55,408 nucleotides of DNA from a virus (Duplodnaviria; Caudoviricetes). The notes beneath the pieces are model-generated. The model was not told the origin of the DNA and made no database searches. It saw only the letters and a list, made by a program, of their open reading frames with translations. Below are positions 1 to 18,413 of the stretch, in pieces. Location of the stretch: IMG/VR virus record IMGVR_UViG_3300036398_002939, positions 1 through 55,408 of that record; one strand, given 5' to 3'. Both the position numbers and the translations under genes were made by a program. The stretch's first letter is position 1. Each line of letters starts with the position of its first letter.

Positions 1-2
1 CT

Positions 3-152
3 GGTAAACCCAATGGACGCAAAACAACATGGACATCATCTGATGGAAAGAGAGTTTCTATCGCATCCATGAATGTTGGCTATCTTCGCAATGCACTTGC
101 TTCTATCGTTACCCCATCCGGTAAGTTTAGAACAAGTACAACATCACGCTAA
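3..152 (+). CDS. 3' end of a hypothetical phage protein (truncated by window start)
   Basis: Open frame GKPNGRKTTWTSSDGKRVSIASMNVGYLRNAL...TSR ending TAA at 150-152; own translation. Confidence 0.6.
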   Translation, partial: GKPNGRKTTWTSSDGKRVSIASMNVGYLRNALASIVTPSGKFRTSTTSR

Positions 153-164
153 TCATGCGTGGTG

Positions 165-378
165 TTGATAGGTGAACCTAAGAGGACTCTAAGAGTCAAT
201 GGTTGGCAGTAACCTATCTGGTCGGACATGATGGAAGGCAAGTATTACGGTTTCGTTTACTGATGGTTTCGATTACCTCCATGTCCGCAAATGAACTCCT
301 TAGAAAACAATACCGGTGTAGACGGCACGGCTGATGGCTCCCCTGCCACAATCTATAAGGCTTCTTCATCGGTATTTC
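165..378 (+). ncRNA. Candidate structured intergenic RNA (three consecutive stem-loop domains)
   Basis: GATAGGT(167-173)/ACCTATC(212-218) enclosing GACTC-TAA-GAGTC; CGGACATG(223-230)/CATGTCCG(280-287); AATACCGGTG(309-318)/CATCGGTATT(367-376) enclosing GGCA/TGCC; followed by a U-rich tract. Confidence 0.4.
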
Positions 379-407
379 TTTTTAATTTACCGTAAGGAAT
401 AACAACC

Positions 408-545
408 ATGAGCAAGAAGAAAGAGAAGAAAGAAGAAACAAAGAAAGAGAAGAACTATGAAGCAGAAGTAGTATATTGCTACTTTAGCGATTTAATCCCC
501 AGTGGTGGCAAACAACCATTCCATACAATTAAGATAAGACGGTAA
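408..545 (+). CDS. Small Lys/Glu-rich hypothetical protein (45 aa)
   Basis: MSKKKEKKEE...KIRR*, preceded by the recurrent leader AAGGAATAACAACC-ATG; own translation. Confidence 0.6.
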   Translation: MSKKKEKKEETKKEKNYEAEVVYCYFSDLIPSGGKQPFHTIKIRR

Positions 546-579
546 CTATATTACATATACAGTATAAGGAATAACAACC

Positions 580-1569
580 ATGTCCAACGGAATCTATCTA
601 ACTCTTGAACAATACAAAGACAAAGACTTACCCATTACAATAACGATCAATGGGCATACATACCATTCTCAATTTGCACTTGCCACTACACAAACTACTT
701 GGTTTGAAATGGGGAAACAACATGGTATGGAATTGGGTAGTGACAATACCTATTCCGATAATGAAATGTCTAATATGCATGATGCATGGTTTGACGAAGG
801 ATATACGAAAGGATATGAAGCCGGATATGACGCTGGCATAGACCATGGAATTGAAAAGACACTACAAGACGATCGTGTGAAAGAAGAATTGGAACGAACT
901 AAACAGACATGGTATGCTAAAGGAAAGGAAGAAGGATATGAAGCCGGTAAGTGGGATTTGCCGGCAGGTGATTCAGGAGTGGAGAATCTGACATACAAAC
1001 ATGGATGGTCTTGCGGATACAATGAAGGATTTGAGATTGGTAAGAGTGCAGGATACAATGATGGATTTGAAGAAGGTAAGAGTGAAGTATTTGAAGAAGG
1101 TAAGGAAGCAGGATATGGTGAAGGATATGAAGCCGGTAAGGTAGAAGCCCTTGCAGAAATAGAAGTGGAGTTTCCCACATACAAACATGGATGGTCTTGT
1201 GGTTACAATGATGGATTTGAAGAAGGTAAGAGTGAAGGATATGATGAAGGATATGAGATTGGTAAGAAAGCCAACGGTATCAGTAAAAAAGAAATACCCG
1301 GTGAATACCTTTCCCGTATAGAAGAAGCATACGATGATGGATATAAGGAAGGATATACGGATTGTAGAGAAGTGGCAAAGATGCTGAATAAATACGGTAT
1401 AGATGAAGATGGTCCCTGCAATGACTGTAAAGAAGAACCAGGTAGGGATGAAGAAGATGGTGATTATGTTGGTCCCGAACATCCTGAATACGATAAGGGA
1501 TATTACGCCGGTTGGGAAGATGGGAAGAACCATATTATGCAATTCATTGGAAATGAAAGTAGTCGATAA
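580..1569 (+). CDS. Acidic GxxxG-repeat protein (Yae1/FliH-like G-Y-x-E-G repeats)
   Basis: Many GY(D/E)xG(Y/F/K) units, duplicated TYKHGWSCGYN block, strong leader. Confidence 0.8.
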   Translation: MSNGIYLTLEQYKDKDLPITITINGHTYHSQFALATTQTTWFEMGKQHGMELGSDNTYSDNEMSNMHDAWFDEGYTKGYEAGYDAGIDHGIEKTLQDDRVKEELERTKQTWYAKGKEEGYEAGKWDLPAGDSGVENLTYKHGWSCGYNEGFEIGKSAGYNDGFEEGKSEVFEEGKEAGYGEGYEAGKVEALAEIEVEFPTYKHGWSCGYNDGFEEGKSEGYDEGYEIGKKANGISKKEIPGEYLSRIEEAYDDGYKEGYTDCREVAKMLNKYGIDEDGPCNDCKEEPGRDEEDGDYVGPEHPEYDKGYYAGWEDGKNHIMQFIGNESSR

Positions 1570-1887
1570 TATACTGTATATGTGAATGACATACCATTCG
1601 GTAAGTGAGTATATCGGTGTTAGTGAATGAGACATCATACGGCAATGGTGTTCCCTGGAAGGTAGAGCCAGTCTGTTATGCGCGTATGCGCGAGGCAGGA
1701 CAGGAGGACAGGGCTGATCACACACCAGTTCCAATTTCTCCCACATTCACCCACAGTATCATACTTACTACCCACAGGTGTCATATTCATAAATGCCGCA
1801 ATAACAAAAACACTAACACATTATCTTTTATTTACATATAGGTAAATGATTGATTGGGCAGTGCTAAAATAATAGTTATGTAAGTAT

Positions 1888-2103
1888 TTGGTCAGTATCA
1901 TAAAACTATTATTTTGGAGTATTCCTTTGGAAGTATTAAGCATATTGCAGATTGGTGGATGGATTAGTTTGTTATTTTGGTATTGTTATAGATGGATGTG
2001 GAGGAGTAATAATCGTATAGGTCTTCGTTGGACTGTTCTATCGTATCTTCTTATCCTTATTCTTGTATGTGGGTATAGTATGTATCGTTTGATATTCATA
2101 TAG
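1888..2103 (+). CDS. Possible small membrane protein
   Basis: Two hydrophobic stretches; TTG start, no clear RBS. Confidence 0.3.
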   Translation: MVSIIKLLFWSIPLEVLSILQIGGWISLLFWYCYRWMWRSNNRIGLRWTVLSYLLILILVCGYSMYRLIFI

Positions 2104-2196
2104 TATCTATATCTTATCCATATTTTGATCTTATATCTGTATTCCTTATATTAGCATATACAGTATTTTTATTTTATGTACCGTTGGAGTTTTGTT

Positions 2197-2409
2197 ATGG
2201 TTTTGTTTGAAACAATAAATCCCTATAATAATATGGTGTCTTACATAAATCCAGAATACATTATGGATATAGGAGACTACCGTGATAGTGTCAATAAGGT
2301 ATATGCCGGTAGTAAGATTCATGTACAAGGTGCTATGATTACAACTTACTATGATTATCGTACACCACAAGAGATAGCAGAAGCTATCAACAAATTACAT
2401 GGAAGATAA
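2197..2409 (+). CDS. Small hypothetical protein, paralog of 3059-3289 (FlbD-like pattern)
   Basis: INPEYI...GSKIHV...YDYRTPQEI; start placed after the repeated leader. Confidence 0.7.
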   Translation: MVLFETINPYNNMVSYINPEYIMDIGDYRDSVNKVYAGSKIHVQGAMITTYYDYRTPQEIAEAINKLHGR

Positions 2410-2467
2410 TTTTACATACCGTTGGAGTTTTGTTATGTCTTGGTTTACAAATAAAAAAAATTGATTT

Positions 2468-2743
2468 ATGAATAAAGAACAAAAAGTAAATTACGTAAAA
2501 TGTTGGTTACAGAAATTTGGTAATCGAGATAATGAAACATTTAACACTGAAGTAGTAGTGGGTGAAACCACTTGGAGAATATCACTTCAATACAACTTTG
2601 ACGATGAAGGTGACCAATGTGACCCATATGACTGGTGTAGTCGTGGTTTCAAACACGTAAATGATAACCAAATTTCAGATAGAACAGATGAAGAGTTGGA
2701 TGAGATAATAAATCAATTAAAATCAAAACAATTTTTTTATTAA
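2468..2743 (+). CDS. Hypothetical protein
   Basis: 91-aa ORF co-oriented with the early cluster. Confidence 0.6.
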   Translation: MNKEQKVNYVKCWLQKFGNRDNETFNTEVVVGETTWRISLQYNFDDEGDQCDPYDWCSRGFKHVNDNQISDRTDEELDEIINQLKSKQFFY

Positions 2744-2813
2744 CCATATACACGATACTAACATTAGTCAATACACAATTACAATTATTTTTTTAGTTAC
2801 CGTTGGAATCCTT

Positions 2814-3026
2814 ATGAAACACAAACTCATTGGTTATGGATTGGCCATAGCAACATTGACCGTATTCTATATTGTGCCTGCAACAAGTGGGTGGAATGTC
2901 CTAACAGGTTTGGTATGTCTCATTGCCGGAGCATACTATATCTATAAGAGTGAAGCCATATTGGGAAACATATTGTTATTGATTTCATTGATGGTTAATA
3001 TAGTATTTAATTGGTATGTAGTATAA
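2814..3026 (+). CDS. Small membrane protein
   Basis: Three hydrophobic segments; repeated leader upstream. Confidence 0.65.
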   Translation: MKHKLIGYGLAIATLTVFYIVPATSGWNVLTGLVCLIAGAYYIYKSEAILGNILLLISLMVNIVFNWYVV

Positions 3027-3058
3027 GCATTATTTTAGTTACCGTTAGGATTTTAGTT

Positions 3059-3289
3059 ATGAAGTTTTTTACAATAAGACTAACCCCATCCGGCAGTGTT
3101 GGTGTTGTTAATATCAATCCACAGTATATTGTATCTATACAACCGGCAGGTCTAGCAGATAACAATATAGGCAGTAGAATCCGTGTGCATGGTGGCGGAG
3201 GTGACTTATACCACGATTACCGTAAACCAGAAGAACTACTGGAGTTATTGAGTTCGTATCATCACCAATCAAGTTTCCTTTCCCTATGA
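3059..3289 (+). CDS. Small hypothetical protein, paralog of 2197-2409
   Basis: INPQYI...GSRIRV...HDYRKPEEL; start MKFF after the leader. Confidence 0.7.
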   Translation: MKFFTIRLTPSGSVGVVNINPQYIVSIQPAGLADNNIGSRIRVHGGGGDLYHDYRKPEELLELLSSYHHQSSFLSL

Positions 3290-3513
3290 AAGAGTTTCCG
3301 AAACAATGGCGGATTTGGAAGATAAGAAGTAGACCGGTTCATTTCCCTTATGAATGGAATAAGGATGAAGTCATGGACTGGCTTAATGATAGTCAGTATA
3401 GAATATGTCCGTTCTGCAATAGAAGGGATGTTAAGTATGACCATTTCAATATATGTGATCCAGAAGAAGAAAGAATACATAGATTGAATAATAATATGAA
3501 TGAAGGTCTCTGA
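3286..3513 (+). CDS. Hypothetical protein with CxxC motif
   Basis: CPFC...HFNIC; ATGA overlap with the upstream stop. Confidence 0.6.
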   Translation: MKEFPKQWRIWKIRSRPVHFPYEWNKDEVMDWLNDSQYRICPFCNRRDVKYDHFNICDPEEERIHRLNNNMNEGL

Positions 3514-3546
3514 TAGTTTTATTTTAGTTACCGTTGGAGTTTTGCT

Positions 3547-3789
3547 ATGGATATTAGAGAAGAAGTAAACAGTTGTTTAACGAAAAACAAACACGGTTTC
3601 ACCCGTGATGAATATATGAAACTGCTAGAGAACTATCCTGGCATAAACATGGACAGATTTTGGGATGCACTCAATGGTATTACCTGCATGAGTATTGATG
3701 GCGAAACCGTTGTGTTCCACCGTGATATTGAGTTGGCTATCCGTTGTGGTATGGAAGATAGAAGTCCAACCATATCAGAATGGGATTGA
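3547..3789 (+). CDS. Hypothetical phage protein
   Basis: 80 aa; repeated leader upstream. Confidence 0.7.
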   Translation: MDIREEVNSCLTKNKHGFTRDEYMKLLENYPGINMDRFWDALNGITCMSIDGETVVFHRDIELAIRCGMEDRSPTISEWD

Positions 3790-3821
3790 TTTTTATTTTA
3801 GATACCGAAGGAACCATAACC

Positions 3822-4079
3822 GTGAACAGAACTATAAAGGATTTCATTACAAATAACTCTATGCACCTGTTTCTCGGTTATCATGTCCCCGGTTCCTTGG
3901 CAGACCGTTATGTTTCCTACATGGGAAAGACATACGAGAAGATGGCAGACAGAAGAAGACAGAACACGATAAACTATTTCAATGGTGATGGTGAACATAT
4001 TGCAACCATTGTCCGTAATAGTGAAGGTATTTTCAAAATGTATTTCGATGATATTACAATAATTCAAATTGAGGAATAA
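3822..4079 (+). CDS. Hypothetical protein
   Basis: GTG start after AAGGAACCATAACC leader variant. Confidence 0.55.
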   Translation: MNRTIKDFITNNSMHLFLGYHVPGSLADRYVSYMGKTYEKMADRRRQNTINYFNGDGEHIATIVRNSEGIFKMYFDDITIIQIEE

Positions 4080-4084
4080 CAACC

Positions 4085-4609
4085 ATGAGTGAAAAACAAA
4101 CATTTGAAGTTGAAGTTGGCGTTAGTTGGGACGGTGGTGAAACTGTTTCAATAGTTGTGATTGATGGAGACACCTACGACTATGATGACATTGTATCAAC
4201 GGCATTCAAAGATGCCAAAGACAATGGTGAACTTGATGGGTTTGAACATATATCAGAAGACGATTGTAAATATGATATTCGGATAACCGATGGTTATTTG
4301 AATGACATCGGTATAACCAATTCGGATGAATTAAAAGACTTTGGTGATGTATTCTATTCCGATGATAATTACCACGATATAGATGTATTTGAAGCGGCGT
4401 ATGCTTGTGATATTCCATTCGAGGATATTGACGAATGCTACAACGGTGCTTGGGATAGTGACGAAGACTTTGTTCAAGACTTGTTGGAATCAACAGGAGA
4501 CTTACCAAGTGATTTACCGCACTATATTCACATTGATTGGGAAAGCACTGCCCGTGATATTATGATGGACTATTGTGAACACAATGGTCATTATTTTAGA
4601 ACGAATTAA
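4085..4609 (+). CDS. ardA: ArdA-family antirestriction protein (DNA mimic)
   Basis: Very acidic; C-terminal YNGAWDSDEDFV...LPHYIHIDWESTARDIMMDY...GHYFR matches the ArdA C-terminal pattern. Confidence 0.8.
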   Translation: MSEKQTFEVEVGVSWDGGETVSIVVIDGDTYDYDDIVSTAFKDAKDNGELDGFEHISEDDCKYDIRITDGYLNDIGITNSDELKDFGDVFYSDDNYHDIDVFEAAYACDIPFEDIDECYNGAWDSDEDFVQDLLESTGDLPSDLPHYIHIDWESTARDIMMDYCEHNGHYFRTN

Positions 4610-4618
4610 GAAACGGTT

Positions 4619-4728
4619 AGTTAGGTGGCGTAATTGGTTAAACGCATGGACAGTAGGGTGAGATAGAATCAACCCCAGCTTATGAAAGAGGCTCCCAAAC
4701 TTTGCAGGTTCAAGTCCTGCCCTAACTA
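4619..4728 (+). ncRNA. Atypical tRNA-like RNA with expanded, two-hairpin anticodon region
   Basis: Acceptor AGTTAGG/CCTAACT, D arm GCG-TAATTGGTTAAA-CGC, T arm GCAGG-TTCAAGT-CCTGC; about 57 nt between D and T arms. Confidence 0.75.
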
Positions 4729-4750
4729 CAAAATAAAAGTTAAAAAATAT

Positions 4751-5521
4751 ATGATAGTAAAATATACTGATTTGATTCATAGTGTAAAGGGATTAGGTGT
4801 ACCGAAACCATTATCTGGAACTCTATCTGGCCATGCAGCCGGAGAACCCTTTGATAAAAGAGTCTATACGGAAATAAAAAATAAATTTCCTAAAAATACA
4901 TTCAGACAGTATGAATATTTAAATAAGTTATACATTGAAAATCAAAATGTAATATCGTATAAAGATAGAAAAGAATTATTTGAATCTTCAGTTATCCACT
5001 TTTTACTTACAAGAGGAAAGGATGCAACAAAAAAATGGAGAACAGATAATCTTTTTGAAGAAAAACAAAACGATACCGCAGATATATTAGTTGTAAAAGA
5101 TGGTTTATATGAGATAATAGATATTAAAACTCGTAATATTTCTAAGAAAGCACAACCACCAAATATAATTTCTGCATTCAAATTGGCACAAATGTGTTCT
5201 ATAATGATTGATGATAAAAAATTTAATGAGTTTACCATCAATTATTTTCAAGTTGATTGGAAGTTGGTCAAAGATGAATTAGTATGTACTGATGCATACA
5301 ATGCTTGTCTATTCAAGACAAACCCCAAAAATCTATACATAAATTGGGCAGCTGCTATGCAAATACAATTTCATGTATCTGAATTGGACCAATCTTTTCC
5401 AGGAACTATGGAAGATTGGGCACACACCTATCTTGAACATTTTGTCAGTCATGTGTACAAAAGATCTGAATACATGGTAAATAAATTTGCAAAACCCTTT
5501 GAAAATAAAGGACTTACATAA
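4751..5521 (+). CDS. HincII-family type II restriction endonuclease (no adjacent methyltransferase)
   Basis: GTLSGHAAGEPF, EEKQNDTADIL, DIKTRNISKKAQPPNIISAFKLA and LYINWAAAMQIQFHV closely match HincII as I recall it; the ORF-track start at 4682 lies inside the tRNA-like RNA, so start placed at 4751. Confidence 0.92.
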   Translation: MIVKYTDLIHSVKGLGVPKPLSGTLSGHAAGEPFDKRVYTEIKNKFPKNTFRQYEYLNKLYIENQNVISYKDRKELFESSVIHFLLTRGKDATKKWRTDNLFEEKQNDTADILVVKDGLYEIIDIKTRNISKKAQPPNIISAFKLAQMCSIMIDDKKFNEFTINYFQVDWKLVKDELVCTDAYNACLFKTNPKNLYINWAAAMQIQFHVSELDQSFPGTMEDWAHTYLEHFVSHVYKRSEYMVNKFAKPFENKGLT

Positions 5522-5564
5522 ATCGATAAGTCCTTACAAATCAAAGACTTACATAACCCTCCTT

Positions 5565-5583
5565 ATTTAGATTCAGTCTAAAT
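5565..5583. promoter_or_regulatory. 19-bp palindromic operator ATTTAGA-N5-TCTAAAT (Fur-box-like)
   Basis: ATTTAGATTCAGTCTAAAT; second copy at 12744-12762. Confidence 0.5.
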
Positions 5584-5600
5584 ATAAATTTCATTCCCAT

Positions 5601-5641
5601 AAAATAATGCTTTGATCTTTCATGCCAACGCCTTATATTTG
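5601..5641 (+). promoter_or_regulatory. Host-type early promoter P1
   Basis: AAAATAATGC-TTTG(5611)-N19-TATATTTG(5634-5641), the Bacteroidota -33/-7 consensus. Confidence 0.85.
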
Positions 5642-5878
5642 TATTGTAAGTTAAGGTGAATGATATGAAACAATGTATAAAATTCTTTCCATTAGCAATA
5701 ACAGTAGGCGTATTGGTTCTTCTTGGTTTGGGTTACCAGAAACACGAATTGCCTAACTTGTTGAACCTCAACGACTTAAACAAAAAACTCCGTGTCCTCC
5801 AAACTACTTCTCGTAAGTCATTGGTAGATAATGAGTTAGCAGAACAGTTGGTAGAACAAAAAAATTATTCGTCAAAGT

Positions 5879-5919
5879 AAAATAATGCTTTGATCTTAAT
5901 GCGCAATTCCGTATATTTG
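5879..5919 (+). promoter_or_regulatory. Host-type early promoter P2
   Basis: TTTG(5889)-N19-TATATTTG(5912-5919). Confidence 0.85.
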
Positions 5920-5973
5920 TATTGTAAGTTAAGGTGGTGGTAATTGAGACCAAAAACAATTCCACAAAAATAA

Positions 5974-6014
5974 AAAATAATGCTTTGATCTTACAAAAAA
6001 AGTTCGTATATTTG
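5974..6014 (+). promoter_or_regulatory. Host-type early promoter P3
   Basis: TTTG(5984)-N19-TATATTTG(6007-6014). Confidence 0.85.
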
Positions 6015-6048
6015 TAATGTAAGTTAAGAACAACCAAAGGAAACAACC

Positions 6049-6273
6049 ATGTTATTCTCGAAAACACTAACCGATAAACTATCAGATGCTTGGTCTGACT
6101 ATTCAAAGCTCATCCGTGAAAGAGAAACCCGCGTCAATCCAATGACATTAGAGGAATCAATGGACTATATGGACCGCAAGGAATCAGTCTTGTATCGTAT
6201 TGCTTTATTGTCCGAAGCCGTGGACATAGTAAAAAATGGTGCAGGTATTTCATCTTCAAAAATAATGCTTTGA
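6049..6273 (+). CDS. Hypothetical early protein
   Basis: Leader AAGGAAACAACC-ATG downstream of P3. Confidence 0.7.
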   Translation: MLFSKTLTDKLSDAWSDYSKLIRERETRVNPMTLEESMDYMDRKESVLYRIALLSEAVDIVKNGAGISSSKIML

Positions 6274-6299
6274 TCTTATCTAAAAATTCCGTATATTTG
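6259..6299 (+). promoter_or_regulatory. Host-type early promoter P4
   Basis: TTTG(6269)-N19-TATATTTG(6292-6299). Confidence 0.85.
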
Positions 6300-6321
6300 T
6301 AAAGTAAGTTAAGGACACAAA

Positions 6322-6444
6322 ATGAAACGCTTAAAACACATTCTCAAAGAGACTGTAATCATTACCGGTATCATCCTGTTTGTTCTCATTGCATCCAGTA
6401 TTGATAGTCTCCTCGATATTGCTATGAATCATTTTTGTAAATAA
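6322..6444 (+). CDS. Small membrane peptide (40 aa)
   Basis: MKRLKHILKETVIITGIILFVLIASSID...; AAGGA RBS after P4; own translation. Confidence 0.55.
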   Translation: MKRLKHILKETVIITGIILFVLIASSIDSLLDIAMNHFCK

Positions 6445-6460
6445 CCACAAGGAAACAACC

Positions 6461-6667
6461 ATGAATAACCCCAATCACATTCGCGAATATGTAGTCACCG
6501 TTTCTGGTGTTTACAATAACAAAGTAGTTTCAATTCCAGAACGCAAGATTCATGCCTATAGTTTTGGAGAAGCCAGTGACATTGCAAACGCTTCGTTCCA
6601 ACAAATCTTCGGTGTAGAAAATTCGATCACATCTAGTATCTATATCAATACATACAACAACCAATAA
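6461..6667 (+). CDS. Hypothetical early protein
   Basis: Leader AAGGAAACAACC-ATG. Confidence 0.7.
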   Translation: MNNPNHIREYVVTVSGVYNNKVVSIPERKIHAYSFGEASDIANASFQQIFGVENSITSSIYINTYNNQ

Positions 6668-6679
6668 GGAACAAAAACC

Positions 6680-6850
6680 ATGAGCACACTTGATGCAATT
6701 ATGAATATAGAATGCAACCCAGAATGTACTGAAGAACTATGGATCCAATCATTTCAGTCACTAATTGATAGTGGCGATGTTTGGGGATTGCAGGGCTGGT
6801 ATCGTAGAATTGCAGTTACATTGATTGATGCCGGTATTTGTACACGATAA
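6680..6850 (+). CDS. Conserved small phage protein (FQxLIDxGxxWxLQG motif)
   Basis: MSTLDAIM...FQSLIDSGDVWGLQGWYRRIAVTLIDAGIC; own translation; RBS present. Confidence 0.75.
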   Translation: MSTLDAIMNIECNPECTEELWIQSFQSLIDSGDVWGLQGWYRRIAVTLIDAGICTR

Positions 6851-6875
6851 ACTATAAACTATAAGGATAACAACC

Positions 6876-7118
6876 ATGATAATGACATATAAAATGAGAG
6901 CCGAAGGCGTCAATGATGTTTTTGAATTTGTGAGAATGTTTAGTAAAAATATCAAAGAATACCGCATCATTGGTAATACTATCATTCCAGATGTTGAATT
7001 TGAATTTGAAACCAAAAAAAGTTTACATATTGTCTTGAAAACTTTGCGTCAAATTCCTGACAGTCATGTAATGGTAGAAACAGTCAAACCAATTTCAGAA
7101 TATACAGGAGTTAGATGA
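6876..7118 (+). CDS. Hypothetical phage protein
   Basis: Leader AAGGATAACAACC-ATG. Confidence 0.7.
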   Translation: MIMTYKMRAEGVNDVFEFVRMFSKNIKEYRIIGNTIIPDVEFEFETKKSLHIVLKTLRQIPDSHVMVETVKPISEYTGVR

Positions 7119-7477
7119 TAAATATGAATAAAATTATTTTTGTGTGTCTAATTCTATTGGGCACCATAGGACTAACCAATGTTATAGAATCAAAATCCTA
7201 TACAATCATTACTGTATCGGGAACTGTTACAGACTACAAAACAAAAAAACCAACAAGTGTTACTATATCATTCTATGATTTATACAATAAACGGATAGGT
7301 TGGTCAAAAAGTAATTCAAAGACTGGCTCCTATTTAGTTACCGGATTAAAGCCAGGTGAGGCATACATAATACGCATTGAATCCATTGACTATATGAGAG
7401 ACGAGTATGAAGTAATAATGCCAAATGTCAATAGTCATATAGAATTAAATAAAGATTTTGAAGTTATACCGAGATAA
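7115..7477 (+). CDS. Exported carboxypeptidase-regulatory-like (beta-sandwich) domain protein
   Basis: Signal-peptide-like N-terminus, VSGTVTDYKTKKP...GSYLVTGLKPGEAYIIRIE pattern. Confidence 0.7.
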   Translation: MINMNKIIFVCLILLGTIGLTNVIESKSYTIITVSGTVTDYKTKKPTSVTISFYDLYNKRIGWSKSNSKTGSYLVTGLKPGEAYIIRIESIDYMRDEYEVIMPNVNSHIELNKDFEVIPR

Positions 7478-7502
7478 TTTAAAAACGAACAAGGAAACAA
7501 CA

Positions 7503-7862
7503 ATGAATACAACAACTCAAACACCCAGTCTTGTATCTGCTATTGGGTTTTTAGTAAACCACAAACTACCAGAACTTGATACAAACAAAACATGGATGTA
7601 TTCAGTCCAATACGGAAACAAGTATGCTAAGATTATTTCAGAAACTAACCGTGGTCCTGCCGGCGGAGTAAAGTCTGTTTGGGGTTTTGTTGCCCTACAA
7701 GACATGACTGTGAGTGGCATACCATACAAACGAGGAGACTTGCTCAAAGCTGCATCATTCAAGGCACCTGCAAAACACGCTCGTGGTAATCTGTTAGAAG
7801 GAACAGCCGAATACGATCTATACGGACCCGCTTACCTAAACAACCCGAGGTCATCATGGTAA
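7503..7862 (+). CDS. Conserved phage protein (GDLLKAASxKAPAKHARGN motif)
   Basis: Motif recurrent in large-phage early genes; leader AAGGAAACAACA-ATG. Confidence 0.75.
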   Translation: MNTTTQTPSLVSAIGFLVNHKLPELDTNKTWMYSVQYGNKYAKIISETNRGPAGGVKSVWGFVALQDMTVSGIPYKRGDLLKAASFKAPAKHARGNLLEGTAEYDLYGPAYLNNPRSSW

Positions 7863-8092
7863 GGAAACCGCATATCCGAGACAAACGATCCCACCATGTT
7901 AAGCGTGGCACCAGATTCCAATGGTATTGTCCAAGTAGGGGCAAGTGGATTGACTGCACTGTGACTGGAACAAATCGTTCTTGGGTGCGGTATATTGAGA
8001 ATCACCGAACCGGTGCTGCATTCGATGGTGAATTTAATTTTACCCGCAGAGACTTTAATGAATTTACGAATATCAAAATTACCCAATGGTGA
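7856..8092 (+). CDS. Small basic hypothetical protein
   Basis: Tightly coupled ORF. Confidence 0.55.
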   Translation: MVRKPHIRDKRSHHVKRGTRFQWYCPSRGKWIDCTVTGTNRSWVRYIENHRTGAAFDGEFNFTRRDFNEFTNIKITQW

Positions 8093-8095
8093 ACC

Positions 8096-8341
8096 ATGTT
8101 TTTACAAGATGACCATGCATACGAACTTGCAACAGACTTGTTGGTAAAGTATCACAATGCTAGTGAAACCTATGATGCATTGAAGGATATTCTGAACCAC
8201 GAAGAACCCGATACGGAAAGGTATGAACTTATCCGTAGGGAATACCTGAAGGCAGCTGAATACGCAAAGATAAGACATACACACGCGATGATTATATCAT
8301 GTGACATTATACAATCTATACAAGAATACCGTTGGAATTAA
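8096..8341 (+). CDS. Hypothetical protein
   Basis: Tightly coupled ORF. Confidence 0.6.
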   Translation: MFLQDDHAYELATDLLVKYHNASETYDALKDILNHEEPDTERYELIRREYLKAAEYAKIRHTHAMIISCDIIQSIQEYRWN

Positions 8342-8366
8342 ACATTAACAATTAAGGAATAAAACT

Positions 8367-8792
8367 ATGTCTATGCCGCATCCATCACAAATTGATTGGC
8401 AAGGAATTGAGAAGAAAATGAATGAACTAAAGACTACGCCTACTCACAGTAACGGTGAGGAATGGCGAGAAGGTTATACAAAGATTGAACATCCCGAATG
8501 GGGAACTGCATTTGTCCGTAGGATTGAAAGGGCAAAGGCAATCGATACATTGCGTGAATGGAACTCAGAGAGATTTAATCCATACGATATAGATGTTCAC
8601 GATATGATAGAATACTATCTTGATATGATGGAATCTGGTGTCAAAGGTTGGGTGGAATATACCAACGAAGAACTTGCTGAGGAACTGAATAGAATGAACA
8701 CGGATGCTGACTGGCTCTATGAAAATGAAGAAGATGAAAACGGTGAGGAATGTCCAGTTATTTTTGAAGTTTACAATGGGGAACATAGATGA
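8367..8792 (+). CDS. Acidic hypothetical protein (GxxG-ExLxE family, copy 1)
   Basis: MMESGVKGWVEYTNEELAEE. Confidence 0.7.
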   Translation: MSMPHPSQIDWQGIEKKMNELKTTPTHSNGEEWREGYTKIEHPEWGTAFVRRIERAKAIDTLREWNSERFNPYDIDVHDMIEYYLDMMESGVKGWVEYTNEELAEELNRMNTDADWLYENEEDENGEECPVIFEVYNGEHR

Positions 8793-8995
8793 TAAATACC
8801 TATCAAGAATGGATGGTCATACTTGAAGATGACCACCAGGAACTGTTTACCTATGCAACTTGGGCATCTTGTGAGAGAGACGCCGAAGAGGATGCGGTAT
8901 TCAACACGAACTTACAAGGTGTCCGTAATGTGACTGTAATACCAATGGATCGTTATAGACTTGCAATGAGGACAACACATGAAATGGGAACCTAA
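8789..8995 (+). CDS. Hypothetical protein
   Basis: ATGA overlap with the upstream gene. Confidence 0.55.
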   Translation: MINTYQEWMVILEDDHQELFTYATWASCERDAEEDAVFNTNLQGVRNVTVIPMDRYRLAMRTTHEMGT

Positions 8996-9536
8996 AATAC
9001 TGGCGGTATGCATATTTTATTTTTTGTCTGTTAGTAATTGTTTATTTGGACAACAACTATCTGACGAAGAAACAAAACTATATGACATGATAATGGAATA
9101 CCGTGCATCCAAAGGATTGCCACCCATACCATTATCAGAAAAACTAAATTATGTTGCAAGAACTCATGCACAAGATTTATTCCACAACAGACCAGATACA
9201 GGAGAATGCAACTTACATAGCTGGTCTAACAAAGGAAACTGGATATCAGTATGTTACAAATCAGACCACACTGGTTCAGAATATGCAAGAATGAAAGGAC
9301 GAGAAATCATTGGCTATTCTGGATCATCTTATGAAATTGTGGCAAAACTTATCCCAACAAATGATATTGGTGTAAATATAACGGCAGAAATTGCTCTTGA
9401 CGGATTCAAAAAAAGTCCACCACATAATGCTGCTATTGTAAATTTAGATAATTGGAATGACAATTATTGGAAAGCGATTGGCATTTCAATCTATGCCAAC
9501 TATGCGTGTGTTTGGTTTGGTGAATATAAAAAATAA
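8979..9536 (+). CDS. Secreted CAP/SCP-domain protein
   Basis: Signal peptide, YRASKGLPPI.LS.KL..VARTHA, E...S.PHNAAI, AIGISI...WFG. Confidence 0.8.
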   Translation: MKWEPKILAVCIFYFLSVSNCLFGQQLSDEETKLYDMIMEYRASKGLPPIPLSEKLNYVARTHAQDLFHNRPDTGECNLHSWSNKGNWISVCYKSDHTGSEYARMKGREIIGYSGSSYEIVAKLIPTNDIGVNITAEIALDGFKKSPPHNAAIVNLDNWNDNYWKAIGISIYANYACVWFGEYKK

Positions 9537-9570
9537 TGCTTTGATCTCATAGAAAGATTACTTATATTTG
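9530..9570 (+). promoter_or_regulatory. Host-type early promoter P5
   Basis: TTTG(9540)-N19-TATATTTG(9563-9570). Confidence 0.85.
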
Positions 9571-9592
9571 TATAACAATAAAGGATAACCGA

Positions 9593-9838
9593 ATGGAACA
9601 CTACATTGAAGAATACTATGATGTTGGACAGAAATACAAAGATTATTTCATAAAGGAAAATGAATGTCCAGAATGTCATTCGGATGGGGACATTGAATAT
9701 CTTGATAGTGGTATCGGTGACGAGTTTTATTTCTATGAAATGGAATGTGGTTGCGGTGCCCGTTGGACAGAATTTCACAGACTTGTTTTTGACAGTATCA
9801 GAATTGACCAGCCCGTAAATAACACAGAAACAGAATAG
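9593..9838 (+). CDS. Acidic zinc-ribbon protein
   Basis: CPEC...ECGCGARW. Confidence 0.7.
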   Translation: MEHYIEEYYDVGQKYKDYFIKENECPECHSDGDIEYLDSGIGDEFYFYEMECGCGARWTEFHRLVFDSIRIDQPVNNTETE

Positions 9839-9877
9839 TCGGTATCATTTTTTATTTTTACTTAAAGGATTATCTTT

Positions 9878-10228
9878 ATGCCAAAAGGAATTTTTTACAA
9901 CGGAATGAGCAAGAAAGAAGTTGCTCACAACACTGCTGTTTTCACTATCATTCTATCGAATGAAGAAAATGCATTGACAAAAGGCCTAATGAAGTTAGGT
10001 AGTTTTGCAAATAAATTGTGGACATCCGAAGAAGATGAATTGCTAAGTTTATATCAAGAGTATCGTGATAAGGTTGTTGATAAATTAGCAGAATTGAACT
10101 CGAAAAGAATGCCCACAACCGCTTTGAGTGAAATAATCAAAAATGGTTATGTTGGTATCACAGATTGGAATGACAATGAAATCATTGAGTTTGCTATGGA
10201 CAATTACGATGAAGTAAAACAAAATTAA
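9878..10228 (+). CDS. Hypothetical protein (GxxG-ExLxE family, copy 2)
   Basis: IIKNGYVGITDWNDNEIIE. Confidence 0.7.
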   Translation: MPKGIFYNGMSKKEVAHNTAVFTIILSNEENALTKGLMKLGSFANKLWTSEEDELLSLYQEYRDKVVDKLAELNSKRMPTTALSEIIKNGYVGITDWNDNEIIEFAMDNYDEVKQN

Positions 10229-10243
10229 ACTTTGAGGATAAAC

Positions 10244-10525
10244 ATGAAACATGAAAACGAAAAGAACTTTCATCATGGTCACACAAGACAAGAGATAGTG
10301 GATGCTATCATTGACTTTGAATTGGACAATGATATTCTACCCGATTGGCGTGAGATATTGGAATATGGTTGGGCTGGATATGCTTATACCGATGAAGATG
10401 CCCTCCGTGAACTGTATGATGAATACTTTACGGAACCTGAAAGGGTTGCTGAGGAATCACCTGAGGATTCATGGTGGTACGATGATCTCGGAACCGCAAC
10501 CGATGGCCGAGGTAATCATGTTTAA
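10244..10525 (+). CDS. Acidic hypothetical protein (GxxG-ExLxE family, copy 3)
   Basis: ILEYGWAGYAYTDEDALRELY; GAGGA RBS. Confidence 0.7.
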   Translation: MKHENEKNFHHGHTRQEIVDAIIDFELDNDILPDWREILEYGWAGYAYTDEDALRELYDEYFTEPERVAEESPEDSWWYDDLGTATDGRGNHV

Positions 10526-10730
10526 CCCAAGTCTCGAATATCTTATCGGATTGTCAAAGCTCTCCGGTCGTTCATTTAATCAAACGATGGCGAGAATCAT
10601 CGAAGGTCTTCCGGAAGCCGATAGACCACATCTCTTTGTCCGTGACGATGACGGTAGTCTTATCTCAGCTCAACAAGTGCTTCAAGAACATTTTGCACCC
10701 AAGCCCATTGGGTTTATCACCAATCAATAA
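10518..10730 (+). CDS. Hypothetical protein
   Basis: Start MFNPS after GAGG RBS (3' part of the 10302 ORF). Confidence 0.6.
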   Translation: MFNPSLEYLIGLSKLSGRSFNQTMARIIEGLPEADRPHLFVRDDDGSLISAQQVLQEHFAPKPIGFITNQ

Positions 10731-10741
10731 GGAATCATATA

Positions 10742-10933
10742 ATGGAATATCTAACATTCACCTTACTCTTTATCGCAGCATGGGCGGGTGTCTCCGCAAC
10801 CGTACTATCTATCATCCAATACATTAAACCAAGATTGACTTGGACACAAAGGGCAATATGGATTCACGCGGACATTTGTAAGTATGCACTTTGGGCTTCT
10901 ATCCCAACCAGTATATTGGGGTTATACCTATGA
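10742..10933 (+). CDS. Small membrane protein
   Basis: Hydrophobic; AAGGA RBS. Confidence 0.6.
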   Translation: MEYLTFTLLFIAAWAGVSATVLSIIQYIKPRLTWTQRAIWIHADICKYALWASIPTSILGLYL

Positions 10934-11103
10934 GTGAACTAGTATCATCCGTTCTGCTCACGATTGCACTTGTCTTGGGTGTAACAAGTTTCATTGATTG
11001 GATAAATCGTGTTCGTATTCTTTGGAACACCAAACGAAAGAGTGGTAATCAAACCCATACGGATTGGGAATTTATTAAACATATTTTAAGGAGGCACCGA
11101 TGA
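10930..11103 (+). CDS. Small membrane protein
   Basis: MSELVSSVLLTIALVLGV..., ATGA coupling. Confidence 0.55.
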   Translation: MSELVSSVLLTIALVLGVTSFIDWINRVRILWNTKRKSGNQTHTDWEFIKHILRRHR

Positions 11104-11237
11104 AAGTCTATGTGCTTTACAACCAAAGATTTTGTGAGATTCGTGGTGTTTATTCATCACACGATTTGGCCATGGAGAATGCAGAATACGGAACAGACTT
11201 TGTATTTGAATGTGAACTTGACGAGGTTTTCGCATGA
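11100..11237 (+). CDS. Small conserved phage protein (MKVYVL...GVYSS...ELD)
   Basis: Own translation; AAGGAGG RBS; ATGA coupling. Confidence 0.65.
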   Translation: MKVYVLYNQRFCEIRGVYSSHDLAMENAEYGTDFVFECELDEVFA

Positions 11238-11380
11238 ACAGACAAGATGATAATAGAGACGAAAGAATAACAAACTGGATAATTGGTTTAGGTATTGCGT
11301 CCGCAGTTATATGGATATTCAATGCATATAATTTGGTGGAACTATATCGTCAGATAGTAAAAATATTTATTATGGAATAA
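11234..11380 (+). CDS. Small membrane peptide
   Basis: Own translation, one hydrophobic helix, ATGA coupling. Confidence 0.45.
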   Translation: MNRQDDNRDERITNWIIGLGIASAVIWIFNAYNLVELYRQIVKIFIME

Positions 11381-11383
11381 CCG

Positions 11384-11713
11384 ATGAAAAATATTTCCGC
11401 AGATACAATTCGTAATTGGATTGACCAATGTGATTCTCAACTGAAACTATTACAGAACGCAAAGGATTTCATTCATCGTGAATACTACGAGAAGGATTCT
11501 ATAACATATTCGGTAGAAGAAGGTTTACAGTTTTATTTCGGAAATCTTATTCGTGACCATAAGACAAAGAAGCAAATCTTGGAGCAGATGTTGATTCATT
11601 GTGAAACTGAAAACATTGTGGAAATGTTTGGTTATGTATTCGAGGACAAGATAGTGGATAAACTTCCCGAATACTTACGGAAAGAATTTTACAATTTCGT
11701 ATACGAGATTTGA
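11384..11713 (+). CDS. Hypothetical protein
   Basis: 109-aa ORF with RBS. Confidence 0.65.
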   Translation: MKNISADTIRNWIDQCDSQLKLLQNAKDFIHREYYEKDSITYSVEEGLQFYFGNLIRDHKTKKQILEQMLIHCETENIVEMFGYVFEDKIVDKLPEYLRKEFYNFVYEI

Positions 11714-11719
11714 TTGGAT

Positions 11720-11802
11720 GGTCCGGTGGCGAAATGGCAGACGCACAAGACTTAAAATTTTGGGAAGGCAACTTCGTGTGGGTTCGAGTCCCACCCGGAC
11801 TA
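11720..11802 (+). tRNA. tRNA-Leu(UAA), CCA not encoded
   Basis: GGTCCGG/CCGGACT acceptor, anticodon loop CT-TAA-AA, long variable arm, GTGGG-TTCGAGT-CCCAC T arm, discriminator A. Confidence 0.95.
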
Positions 11803-11808
11803 CAATCA

Positions 11809-11843
11809 ATGGGCAGTGGTTTTTAATCACTGCCCATATTTAT
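11809..11843 (+). terminator. Hairpin after tRNA-Leu, overlapping an ATATTTAT motif
   Basis: ATGGGCAGTG(11809-11818)/CACTGCCCAT(11828-11837). Confidence 0.6.
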
Positions 11844-11882
11844 TATGGTAGTTATGTTTTATTTATTATATGAGGTTATATC

Positions 11883-12146
11883 ATGTTAGATACCTTAAAG
11901 ACATTTACACCATTACTTGTTTTGTCCGTCATCGCAATCGGTGCAACATTTGGGGATGGTAACTTCAGCACATTCGCTGTTGGTTTAAGTAAGTATGCAC
12001 TTGCCGTTGGAGCTGCATGGTTTGTTGATTCATTCTTGATTAAGGAGGTGAAGACTCGTGAGATACTTGCAGAAAATCCTGTTGCTTACGCTATTTGGTT
12101 GTTTGCTAACATCCTCACCGCTGCTCTCTGCTTCTCAAACAGTTGA
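11883..12146 (+). CDS. Putative holin-like membrane protein
   Basis: 87 aa with about three hydrophobic helices, directly upstream of a peptidoglycan hydrolase. Confidence 0.6.
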   Translation: MLDTLKTFTPLLVLSVIAIGATFGDGNFSTFAVGLSKYALAVGAAWFVDSFLIKEVKTREILAENPVAYAIWLFANILTAALCFSNS

Positions 12147-12639
12147 ACAGACAGACGGTGAAAGGGTTAGAAACATTGCTTACGGATTCGTTGGAACGAA
12201 AGAGGAAGGAAACAACGGAGGATATTGGGTAACTCGTTATCTAAAATCAGTTGGACTGAGACCTGGAAATCCTTGGTGTGCAGCATTCGTTTCATTTTGT
12301 CTTGATAGTGCTAAAATAAAAACTATGCGTGTTCGTTCTGGTTTAGCCAGACACTTCATCACGAAGAACAAGACAATCCGTGCTACGAAAGTTATGAACT
12401 CAAACATGGACATTCCTACCGGAACCGTAGTGGTTTGGCGTAGGGGAACAACAACATTTGGTCATGTTGGGTTTGTTGATAAATGGAAAGGTAAAGCCGG
12501 AACAACGATTGAAGGCAATACCAGTTCCGGTCGTAGTGGTAGAGAATGGGATGGTGGTGGTGTATGGTATCGTAAGAGAACAATCAATCCATACAATCAT
12601 TTCAGAATAACAGATTTTGCCCTATTAGACCAAAAATAA
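12058..12639 (+). CDS. CHAP-domain peptidoglycan hydrolase with signal peptide
   Basis: PWCAAFV, GHVGFV, TIEGNT; GTG start with AAGGAGGTG upstream. Confidence 0.88.
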   Translation: MRYLQKILLLTLFGCLLTSSPLLSASQTVEQTDGERVRNIAYGFVGTKEEGNNGGYWVTRYLKSVGLRPGNPWCAAFVSFCLDSAKIKTMRVRSGLARHFITKNKTIRATKVMNSNMDIPTGTVVVWRRGTTTFGHVGFVDKWKGKAGTTIEGNTSSGRSGREWDGGGVWYRKRTINPYNHFRITDFALLDQK

Positions 12640-12644
12640 TCATA

Positions 12645-12668
12645 GGGGAGCCCACGCTCCCCATTTTT
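12645..12668 (+). terminator. Intrinsic terminator
   Basis: GGGGAGC-CCAC-GCTCCCC followed by ATTTTT. Confidence 0.7.
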
Positions 12669-12678
12669 ATTCCAGTCG

Positions 12679-12820
12679 TAACCCCTTGAAAATAAAGGAC
12701 TTAGGCCCGGTCGTAACTCTTTGCGGGATAAGGACTTAGCACTATTTATATCCAGTCTAAATAAGAATTAGCGGTAAATAAAATAATGCTTTGATCTTAA
12801 TGCGCAATTCCGTATATTAG
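12679..12820 (+). promoter_or_regulatory. Regulatory module: two 25-bp palindromes, Fur-box-like palindrome and promoter P6
   Basis: Palindromes 12679-12703 and 12714-12738, ATTTATATCCAGTCTAAAT 12744-12762, TTTG(12790)-N19-TATATTAG(12813-12820). Confidence 0.8.
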
Positions 12821-12862
12821 CACTATAAATTAATCAACAACCACATTATTATAGGTTTATTT

Positions 12863-13285
12863 ATGAAAAACATCACATTAAACATCGTCTTTTTGATGAC
12901 ATTGTTCACATTTATTGGTTGTGAACAGTCACCAATTTCACCCATAACAGAGACTAATTATAGTGTAACTGTTGGTGAAAACCAAATAGAAAATATTGTT
13001 GTAAACAAATCAACAGATTCGGTTAGAGTAGTTATTGATTGTTTGAATTTAACACGTGATCAACATATTCGTATTATGATTATAGTGACAGAGTATGAGG
13101 GAATGATTCAATGGTTAAAGGCAAAACAAAAAAATACAACACCAACAATAAATGAAATGTATAAATCAATAAGAATTATTTTATCACCAGAACAACAAAT
13201 ACTATGGGATAATTGGGTTGCAACCGGTACTATCCCATGTGAAATAAAACCAGATATTTACAAACAACAAACGGTATCAAAATAA
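12863..13285 (+). CDS. Lipoprotein with Spy/CpxP-like LTxxQ motifs
   Basis: Lipobox-like FIGC; LNLTRDQ and ILSPEQQ. Confidence 0.6.
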   Translation: MKNITLNIVFLMTLFTFIGCEQSPISPITETNYSVTVGENQIENIVVNKSTDSVRVVIDCLNLTRDQHIRIMIIVTEYEGMIQWLKAKQKNTTPTINEMYKSIRIILSPEQQILWDNWVATGTIPCEIKPDIYKQQTVSK

Positions 13286-13287
13286 AC

Positions 13288-13614
13288 ATGGAACATTATT
13301 TTTCAGTACACATCTGGCGGATTCGTTCACTACAACGGGGCCCCAAAAAAACTAAAAACTCATACATCGGTTGGTTTCGTTCACACGATTCATCATATCC
13401 CGATTGGGAAGGGGCGATAGCCCGTGTTCAATCCCTTAAAGATTTTCTTCGTGGTGAGGCCGGTGATTTTTCGGATGAACAGATTATTACCGCCCGTGGT
13501 GGTTCATATAACTGGTCATGGCGGAATGTGAGTAACGATTGTATCATTGAGATTACAAAGATAGATTTTGGGAGGGTGTATGATTGGGACGATGTAGGAC
13601 CTGGTGTTGGGTAA
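13288..13614 (+). CDS. Hypothetical protein
   Basis: 108-aa coupled ORF. Confidence 0.6.
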   Translation: MEHYFSVHIWRIRSLQRGPKKTKNSYIGWFRSHDSSYPDWEGAIARVQSLKDFLRGEAGDFSDEQIITARGGSYNWSWRNVSNDCIIEITKIDFGRVYDWDDVGPGVG

Positions 13615-13702
13615 CGGGAACTATTTGAACTGTGTATATGTTGTGGGTATGTTTGACAATCCGACTTGTTCGGAATGGGAAACATACCTTAAACATTTTT
13701 TA

Positions 13703-13734
13703 CTTGACTAGTATCTAAAAATTTCGTATATTTG
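13703..13734 (+). promoter_or_regulatory. Host-type promoter P7
   Basis: CTTGAC...CGTATATTTG(13727-13734). Confidence 0.7.
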
Positions 13735-13762
13735 TTCATCATTCACATTACGACAGAAAACT

Positions 13763-14047
13763 ATGGCAAAGATGAATTGGGAGAAGGCAAAACGATATAG
13801 GCCGACACAAGAAGAACTTGAACGATGGAAAAGAATAAAAATGGAAAAGGAGAAACTGAAGGCATCTCGCAAAAAAAATAAACCGATTAAAAAACCCGGA
13901 ATGGCGACTCCAAAACAAATGAGATTTCTCCGTAGGAATAAACTGATAAAACCTACAACAAAAGAAGTTTCTTTTGGAACTGCAAGTAATCTTATAGATA
14001 GATTCATCAGAAAACAAAAAAATATTTTGAAAAATAAAAAGGTTTAA
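13763..14047 (+). CDS. Highly basic protein, possible nucleic-acid binding
   Basis: K/R-rich; ATPKQ...ASNLID motif. Confidence 0.65.
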   Translation: MAKMNWEKAKRYRPTQEELERWKRIKMEKEKLKASRKKNKPIKKPGMATPKQMRFLRRNKLIKPTTKEVSFGTASNLIDRFIRKQKNILKNKKV

Positions 14048-14051
14048 AGTT

Positions 14052-14597: not shown

Positions 14598-14613
14598 TTA
14601 AAAGGAGATAAAA

Positions 14614-14970: not shown

Positions 14971-15019
14971 AAATAATACATATTTATAGATATGTTTTAG
15001 TGTTATGAGTTAGTATGTT

Positions 15020-16316: not shown

Positions 16317-16408
16317 GAACTAATATGAAAGTAACAAAAATTACCGGAGACGGTAAAGTATCACAACAATACATAAATGATTCAGTAACAATTTACAAAG
16401 GAGGTAAT

Positions 16409-16702: not shown

Positions 16703-18364
<1,662 letters not shown>

Positions 18365-18383
18365 AACATCAAATTTGATTGTC

Positions 18384-18413
18384 AAAAGCCCCTATCAAAT
18401 AGGGGCTTTTTTT
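18384..18413 (+). terminator. Intrinsic terminator after groEL
   Basis: AAAAGCCCCTAT-CAA-ATAGGGGCTTTTTTT. Confidence 0.9.

Follow-up and report, generated by a model that had tools for sequence, protein, structure and literature searches.

A HincII-family endonuclease gene

The window analysed in this study is a whole record of the IMG/VR database (IMGVR_UViG_3300036398_002939), a linear viral contig of 55,408 bp (1..55408). The subject of the analysis is an open reading frame (ORF) of 256 amino acids on its plus strand (4751..5521), assigned by Pfam and by comparison with the solved HincII structure to the HincII family of Type IIP restriction endonucleases. The gene stands without a methyltransferase (MTase) partner in the window, in DNA where the HincII site GTYRAC does not occur. 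CheckV rates the contig 28% complete, and it represents ~28-31% of a phage genome of ~177 kb; the relative G015 of a neighbouring clade, rated 100% complete, has 177,312 bp.

The predicted protein matches Pfam Endonuc-HincII (PF09226) with 401 bits (cut-off 23.7) over profile positions 3-245 of 247, and its alignment to the solved HincII chain 1kc6_A (E 4e-93), at ~60% identity, covers residues 7-254 of 257. The block NDTADI...IDIKTRN...AQPPNIIS is kept, and its TADI...IDIK and AQPPN segments are identical to those of HincII, the catalytic residues of which we take to be D114, D127 and K129 of the PD-(D/E)XK type. The residue that HincII inserts into the DNA stack is described as Gln138 (PMC3025569), and alignment to HincII shows that the position of this intercalating glutamine, within AQPPN, is conserved in the phage protein. 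Cleavage at GTY/RAC is assumed for the phage protein from its identity to HincII. Position 4751 is the likely start of the gene, because an ORF extended back to 4682 would run into the tRNA-like gene that lies upstream.

Comparison of the C-terminus revealed the sequence KPFENKGLT where the family has KPFEKYIK; the native end has been swapped for sequence read from the phage flank. A cluster at 90% identity contains eight members from several assemblies, all of which are full length and carry the phage-specific tail (8/8). These variants are 96-100% identical to the copy in the window, and the residues of the catalytic block, including AQPPN, are invariant in all eight.

Taxonomic placement of the endonuclease was taken from ranked match lists. 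Among 1278 homologs the nearest named ones belong to Bacteroidota, with the protein of a Flavobacterium metagenome-assembled genome present in the 75%-identity cluster. The identity is 69-70% to Flavobacterium croceum and 64-67% to families of Bacteroidales, Flavobacteriaceae and Cytophagales. The gene probably came from Bacteroidota, where its closest named relatives are chromosomal. NCBIfam offered no family either for the endonuclease or for the MTase-like paralogs described below.

Missing methyltransferase partner

Loci of HincII homologs were sampled as 82 viral or metagenome loci and an independent set of 80 loci from named genomes. Analysis of these loci revealed an Eco57I-family MTase (530 amino acids; Pfam PF07669, 70 bits) as the usual neighbour of the endonuclease (R) gene. 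It adjoins R at 78 of the 82 viral or metagenome loci, and all four misses have R at a contig edge. At the named-genome loci it adjoins R in 75 of 80 cases, in 71 of them directly upstream on the same strand; three of the five misses have R at a contig edge and two are N-terminally truncated R matches. With both sets joined, an adjacent MTase is present at 153 of 162 loci, and the nine misses consist of seven contig edges and two truncated R genes.

No Eco57I-type MTase was detected in the window by tblastn and PF07669 gave no match at E<=10, with ample flanks on both sides of the endonuclease gene; a search of the six frames of the window with PF07669, PF02384, PF02086 and PF00145 likewise gave no match. 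Of the 163 loci, the window alone has a full-length homolog with enough sequence beside it for the MTase but no MTase there. A complete Type II restriction-modification (R-M) system, in which the cognate MTase is encoded with the endonuclease, was therefore not found in the sequenced window. The full records of eight relatives contained no Eco57I-type MTase, the only match being spurious (E 0.19).

A scan of IMG/VR found only two viral HincII homologs, each 51% identical and accompanied by its MTase. One of them lies on a viral contig (L002, 3451-5851) as a complete HincII-type R-M pair in which M overlaps R, the canonical arrangement as against that of the window. This pair adjoins a serine recombinase and an HhH-GPD glycosylase, and the contig is probably an integrated element or a temperate phage.

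One MTase-like gene is present in the window, a truncated ORF on the minus strand (54520..55407) with motifs I and IV (CGWGG...SPPY), of a non-cognate type and with a marginal match to N6_N4_Mtase (26.9 bits, cut-off 26.7). Its orthologs are 95-99% identical in seven of seven close relatives that lack HincII, and G015 has paralogs. In a relative (L246, which is G001 40001-60000), three paralogous MTase-like genes of 371, 540 and 408 amino acids occur on the minus strand at 9693-17750, the first of them being the counterpart of the window gene. Their N6_N4_Mtase motif-IV matches amount to 24.5-30.4 bits, the 408-amino acid paralog falling below the cut-off of 26.7. In the replication module, the three genes surround a family-B DNA polymerase that is divided between ORFs of 609 and 304 amino acids. 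From this conservation and position, the gene at 54520-55407 is best described as a core gene of the replication module and not as a partner acquired with the endonuclease.

Absence of GTYRAC and of other palindromes

Counting of exact matches found no GTYRAC site in the 55,408 bp. The expected number was 42.8 under a Markov model of order 1, 29.6 under order 3 and 18.9 under order 4, and 100 dinucleotide-preserving shuffles gave a mean of 42.89 (sd 6.65). By site, the order-1 expectation was 12.0 for GTCAAC, 11.5 for GTTGAC, 15.8 for GTTAAC and 3.5 for GTCGAC. Single-position variants of the site were present at 65-116% of expectation, including GTYRAT/ATYRAC (155 vs 193 expected), GTYRAA/TTYRAC (133 vs 198), GTYRAG/CTYRAC (46 vs 71) and GTRYAC (26 vs 31.5). 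Only 23 of the 2080 hexamer classes occurred at most once despite an expectation of at least 10. Among these missing classes, GTCAAC/GTTGAC (0 vs 23.5) has the highest expectation of the non-palindromic hexamers. The depletion is real and targets the degenerate HincII site and not palindromes alone, because GTCAAC/GTTGAC is gone while the single-position variants persist.

GTYRAC is not the only site that is missing. In the close clade of the phage, TTATAA, TATATA, TCATGA, ACATGT, TTCGAA, CTTAAG, AAGCTT, GAATTC, GATATC and AGTACT have counts of zero or close to it. Observed and expected numbers in the window were 0/61 for TTATAA, 0/44 for TATATA, 0/34 for TCATGA, 1/27 for ACATGT and 0/19 for TTCGAA; examples across the close clade are 0/61, 0/111 and 0/117 for TTATAA and 0/44, 0/72 and 0/72 for TATATA. 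The control palindromes ATGCAT, CATATG and GTATAC were near expectation. G015 of the neighbouring clade keeps TTATAA, TATATA, GAATTC and CAATTG and avoids a different set, and CAATTG varies even within the close clade (window 2/34, G001 3/72, G002 59/81, G005 37/39). No phage enzymes matching the other purged palindromes were seen in the contig, and to our knowledge no restriction enzyme recognises TATATA. This shifting pattern of many sites fits avoidance of host restriction systems.

The endonuclease gene itself contains none of the 12 site types purged in the clade. Among 80 homolog genes the mean was 3.08 such sites per gene, and eight of the 80 had none (3/61 among low-GC homologs). This composition suggests, as modest evidence, that the cassette carrying the gene has spent time under the constraints of the phage and has been kept intact.

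An earlier sequence-only reading of this DNA had described an intact HincII homolog with its catalytic and recognition segments kept, and the Pfam score and the full-length PDB alignment bear this out. Its statement that no MTase neighbours the gene also held, and the search for a cognate MTase that it proposed found none on the contig. It had further reported, by eye, no GTYRAC in 55.4 kb next to plentiful near-variants, which the exact count reproduced, and the comparison with Markov expectations that it called for confirmed the depletion. The comparison with other palindromic hexamers came out on both sides: GTYRAC is gone, but many other palindromes are also at zero. Some particulars needed correction: the computed G+C content is 32.6% and not ~30%, the record is a fragment and therefore not "the phage DNA" as a whole, and the contig does contain a truncated MTase-like ORF, though an unrelated one (54520-55407).

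Depletion of GTYRAC in relatives lacking the gene

Protein scans with the GroEL-like protein and the clamp loader yielded 160 relative loci (2.07 Mb), in which neither a HincII homolog nor an Eco57I-type MTase was found; the whole records of 20 relatives also contained no HincII homolog (0/20). Counts over whole records gave observed/expected GTYRAC numbers of 3/90 (G001), 3/95 (G002), 2/57 (G003), 4/57 (G004), 0/43 (G005), 1/35 (G006) and 1/36 (G007). These seven relatives, with no HincII in their records, thus total 14 sites vs 413 expected over 526 kb. G015, also without HincII, has 82 sites vs 144 expected. Grouping of loci by clamp-loader identity gave 13 sites vs 457.5 expected (ratio 0.028) for 50 close-clade loci at 93-98% identity, a ratio of 0.55 for 17 loci at 87-89% and a ratio of 0.63 for 13 loci at 77-81%. 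At the residual rate of the close clade, 1.45 sites would be expected in the window and the probability of finding none is 0.235; the zero of the window is therefore indistinguishable from the counts in gene-less relatives.

These results bear on the interpretation given in the sequence-only reading, in which the phage purged its sites in order to discriminate self from non-self. Relatives without the gene are nearly as purged, and at least 10 other palindromes are purged too, so that this origin of the depletion did not hold. The reading had itself named equal depletion in relatives lacking the gene as the observation that would speak against it, and this is essentially what was seen. What survives of it is self-protection in a narrower sense: missing sites would spare this DNA from the enzyme, but the purge does not appear to be a device driven by the enzyme. 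Its alternative, avoidance of a host HincII-type system, gives the better account of how the depletion arose.

The cassette and its slot

The early-gene region around the endonuclease is dense, and the gene lies on its coding strand. Upstream is an ArdA-like antirestriction gene (4085..4609, plus strand; Pfam ArdA 27.8 bits, cut-off 27) that belongs to the conserved left flank of a variable slot. Orthologs of the ArdA-like protein were found in G001 (63% identity) and G003 (59%). Taken with the wholesale avoidance of Type II sites, an anti-Type-I function of this kind suggests that the phage counters restriction in several layers. Between the two genes lies the tRNA-like gene (4619..4728, plus strand; Rfam tRNA 41.9 bits, gathering threshold 29) with an insertion of ~31 nt in its anticodon arm. 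ARAGORN reports it in intron mode alone, as Pro(agg); the gene may contain an intron, be disrupted or encode a decoy tRNA. G001, L284 and L285 share it, and the slot begins, on its left side, where this gene ends.

A scan with the single ArdA-like protein gave no result; one with an alignment of three sequences retrieved five loci. The relatives that span the slot are G001, G003, L284, L285 and L286 (n=5). Homology on the left stops 2 nt past the tRNA-like gene in G001, L284 and L285; G003 has a divergent tRNA-like gene at the slot edge, and the match of L286 ends at the ArdA-like gene. Homology resumes at window position 5493, the start of the conserved right flank (5493..5535, plus strand), where the block TTGAAAATAAAGGACTTAC is invariant in six of six sequences. 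Blastn and the alignment junctions place between these borders a stretch of ~762 bp (4731..5492, plus strand) that is unique to the lineage and consists of a 20-nt leader followed by HincII codons 1-247. The last nine codons of the endonuclease lie in the conserved phage flank, and a stem-loop formed by a 10-pair inverted repeat (5508-5535, plus strand) overlaps its stop codon.

In the relatives these borders enclose 1.3-2.3 kb of other DNA, and a HincII gene occurs in none of the five slots (0/5). Their contents include an M15 peptidase together with a GmrSD_N-like protein below threshold (26.5 bits, cut-off 33.2), a 295-amino acid protein with a DGQNR motif and no Pfam match, and a secreted-looking protein of 229 amino acids. 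As read from these alignments, the cassette consists of the endonuclease gene only and occupies a hypervariable slot in the early region. The flank resembles the 3' end expected of the native gene, and recombination at short microhomology is therefore a plausible route of capture.

Two other views of the slot were considered and rejected. The mixed contents of the variants spoke against a slot specific to nucleases. A homing-type selfish endonuclease was rejected because the relatives offer no target sites: the five slot-spanning loci contain one GTYRAC in 49 kb vs ~43 expected, and their slots are filled, never empty. A direct repeat (D2, at 4845 and 5493, 71% identity) was also set aside as a probable chance match.

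Downstream of the slot, a 76-nt intergenic repeat (family D1) occurs in four copies on the plus strand (5580-5655, 5858-5933, 5953-6028 and 6238-6313), each carrying TTTG-N19-TAtaTTTG, a form of the TAnnTTTG motif, and lying upstream of small early genes. The D1 repeats are likely to be early promoters of the Bacteroidota type and are possible recombination substrates for cassette exchange. The stem-loop and promoter repeats that follow the slot recall the promoter/stem-loop cassettes of T4-type phages. A scan for sigma-70 promoters stayed at background (14 vs 12.3 expected).

Other features of the record and the probable host

The contig also encodes a GroEL-type chaperonin (16724-18364, plus strand; 268 bits), two large RCC1-repeat proteins of 883 and 769 amino acids (22133-27107, minus strand), a 183-amino acid protein with a type IX secretion (T9SS) sorting domain at its end (31634-32185, minus strand), a PD-(D/E)XK nuclease and the clamp loader. 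An island of ~11.8 kb on the minus strand (~34,900-46,700) contains genes for sugar and nonulosonic-acid metabolism and glycosyltransfer, namely NeuB, a DegT-type aminotransferase, epimerases/dehydratases, a TPP (thiamine pyrophosphate) enzyme, an FkbM methyltransferase and several glycosyltransferases. None of eight relatives matches the island at the nucleotide level; between the same flanks they have 1.5-13 kb of other DNA, and on this comparison it is a second hypervariable island.

The motif TTTG-N18-20-TAnnTTTG, which we take to be the Bacteroidota promoter consensus, occurs 11 times in the window vs 2.43 expected, and none of 100 shuffles reached 11. Together with the T9SS sorting domain and the taxonomy of the nearest homologs of the endonuclease, it indicates that the host phylum is probably Bacteroidota. 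A search with the DegT-like sugar gene pointed to no host; the best 120 matches, 85-94% identical, were all from relatives of the phage clade. INPHARED phage records gave no match either to 8 kb of the window (megablast) or to the endonuclease protein (tblastn).

Probable avoidance before capture

Overall, we consider it fairly probable that site avoidance came first and that a solitary HincII gene, harmless for want of sites, was captured afterwards. On this account a clade of ~177-kb phages, probably infecting Bacteroidota, would have purged GTYRAC and at least 10 other 6-bp palindromes earlier, the likely driver being selection by host R-M systems. One sublineage would later have captured the endonuclease gene alone, leaving the upstream MTase behind, and the gene would have landed in the hypervariable early slot, directly behind the tRNA-like gene and with the ArdA-like gene further upstream. 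An enzyme without a methylase could persist there without harm, because the genome would offer no sites. Early expression together with the ArdA-like gene might then lead to cleavage of unmethylated GTYRAC-bearing DNA in the infected cell, and the possible targets would be a host chromosome without HincII-type methylation, co-infecting phages (for example, those of the related 87% clade, with 82 GTYRAC sites per genome) and other mobile DNA. Such use as a weapon is inferred because of the early position beside an antirestriction gene and the maintenance of the gene. That avoidance served in this way as a pre-adaptation, by which the phage turns the enzyme of its host on unmethylated host chromosomes or competitors early in infection, is put forward tentatively, as the less probable part of the account.

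Several observations weigh against this order of events. The sequenced part is only ~28-31% of the genome, and GTYRAC sites or an MTase that gives protection may lie in the remainder. The relatives, except G015, are fragments (16-70% complete), and a HincII gene might be present elsewhere in them. GTYRAC specificity of the enzyme is predicted from its ~60% identity to HincII, and a host HincII-type system is deduced only from the avoidance itself and the taxonomic distribution of the family. The motif scan found no Bacteroidota-type promoter directly upstream of the endonuclease gene, and three SPPY MTase-like paralogs of unassigned specificity exist in the clade. Finally, most relatives have more sites (1-4) than the window with its zero, as would be seen if the gene contributed selection of its own, although the difference is not significant (P = 0.235).

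This last point also supports the reverse order, in which the close clade inherited the HincII gene from its ancestor, the gene drove every GTYRAC out of the genome, and other cassettes later replaced it in the sampled relatives. Loss would have been easy from a hypervariable slot; the variants of the gene have diverged by up to 4%, so the gene is not brand new, and it carries none of the purged sites of the clade. We nevertheless regard an enzyme-driven purge as improbable: the gene is missing from all 20 records, all 160 loci and all five slot-spanning relatives, the only two IMG/VR homologs are 51% identical and have their own MTase, the zero does not differ significantly from the residual rate of the relatives, and the other purged palindromes have no matching phage enzyme in the contig. 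Zero sites beside a matching enzyme gene are in themselves no evidence that the enzyme caused the purge. An equally improbable reading is that of a separated R-M system, with a GTYRAC-protecting MTase in the remaining ~120 kb or among the SPPY paralogs. The contig is only 28% complete, it ends in an MTase-like ORF with three such paralogs in relatives, and separated systems are documented in prokaryotes (PMC3488263). These paralogs, however, do not belong to the Eco57I family, whose MTases accompany HincII homologs at 153 of 162 loci, and they are kept both in relatives without HincII and in G015 with its 82 sites. The full records of eight relatives have no Eco57I-type MTase, and the sequenced part of the phage offers no sites to methylate.

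The gene might also be a neutral passenger, brought in by illegitimate recombination and free of cost where no sites exist, or be catalytically dead or unexpressed. Its restriction to one sublineage, the unrelated accessory genes in the slots of relatives, the replacement of its native C-terminal residues by the flank and the lack of a promoter motif of its own all agree with such an origin. Against it stand the eight full-length variants with an invariant catalytic block despite up to 4% divergence, the location on the coding strand of a dense early-gene region directly after the ArdA-like gene, and the absence of all 12 purged sites from a gene whose homologs have a mean of 3.08. We consider a mere passenger or inactive protein unlikely, though less so than the two preceding explanations, and retain avoidance followed by capture as the preferred account.

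If the enzyme is active, this would be a natural phage case of a Type IIP enzyme without a methylase that is safe solely by the composition of the genome. It would tie two familiar phenomena, the avoidance of restriction sites and the existence of solitary restriction genes, into a testable causal order, avoidance and then capture, and would add sequence-specific restriction to the tools of phages for host takeover or competition between phages. If the pre-adaptation reading applies generally, the slot behind the tRNA-like gene would serve for the exchange of offensive and counter-defence cassettes in an abundant clade.

Comparison with known systems

The nearest known systems are the HincII/HindII Type IIP R-M systems, which combine a PF09226 endonuclease with an Eco57I-family gamma-class m6A (N6-methyladenine) MTase. 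The phage gene resembles them in its full-length endonuclease, ~60% identity and catalytic block. It differs in lacking the MTase partner, in the C-terminal five residues, which come from the phage flank, and in being encoded by a virulent-looking large phage, whereas theirs are encoded by a bacterial chromosome.

Absence of sites as protection would have a parallel in PacI, the site of which is 8 bp long and AT-only. PacI of Pseudomonas alcaligenes is described as a solitary endonuclease in a host genome without its sites (PMC3488263), and the likeness would lie in a genome spared through site absence instead of methylation. Unlike the bacterial case, the phage lacks a degenerate 6-bp site that would be expected ~43 times in 55 kb of AT-rich DNA, and it does so through active avoidance shared by its clade. 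Sites in the encoding genome number 0 in the available 55,408 bp (28% complete), while relatives keep 0-4 per 36-124 kb.

Solitary restriction endonucleases were counted by Oliveira et al. 2014 in 831 phages, with 12 found, seven of them in virulent phages (PMC4176335); a phage endonuclease gene without a methylase is therefore not unprecedented. The passages of that survey on solitary enzymes give counts alone, with no link of a phage enzyme to site absence or cassette capture. No report joining a solitary Type II endonuclease of a phage with absence of its site was found in the full-text collection searched; the supplementary tables of PMC4176335 and PMC3488263 may include some.

With phage restriction-site avoidance in general, this clade shares the purge of GTYRAC and at least 10 palindromes and the different set avoided in the neighbouring clade. 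It departs from the usual situation in that the avoided specificity is predicted to be encoded by the phage itself as well.

T4 EndoII and EndoIV, whose own phage DNA is protected by hydroxymethylcytosine, and the R-M enzymes of chloroviruses degrade unprotected host DNA. The logic proposed here is alike, but protection in those systems is by modification or methylation, whereas for the present phage, in which the activity of the enzyme is predicted, protection would be by the absence of sites.

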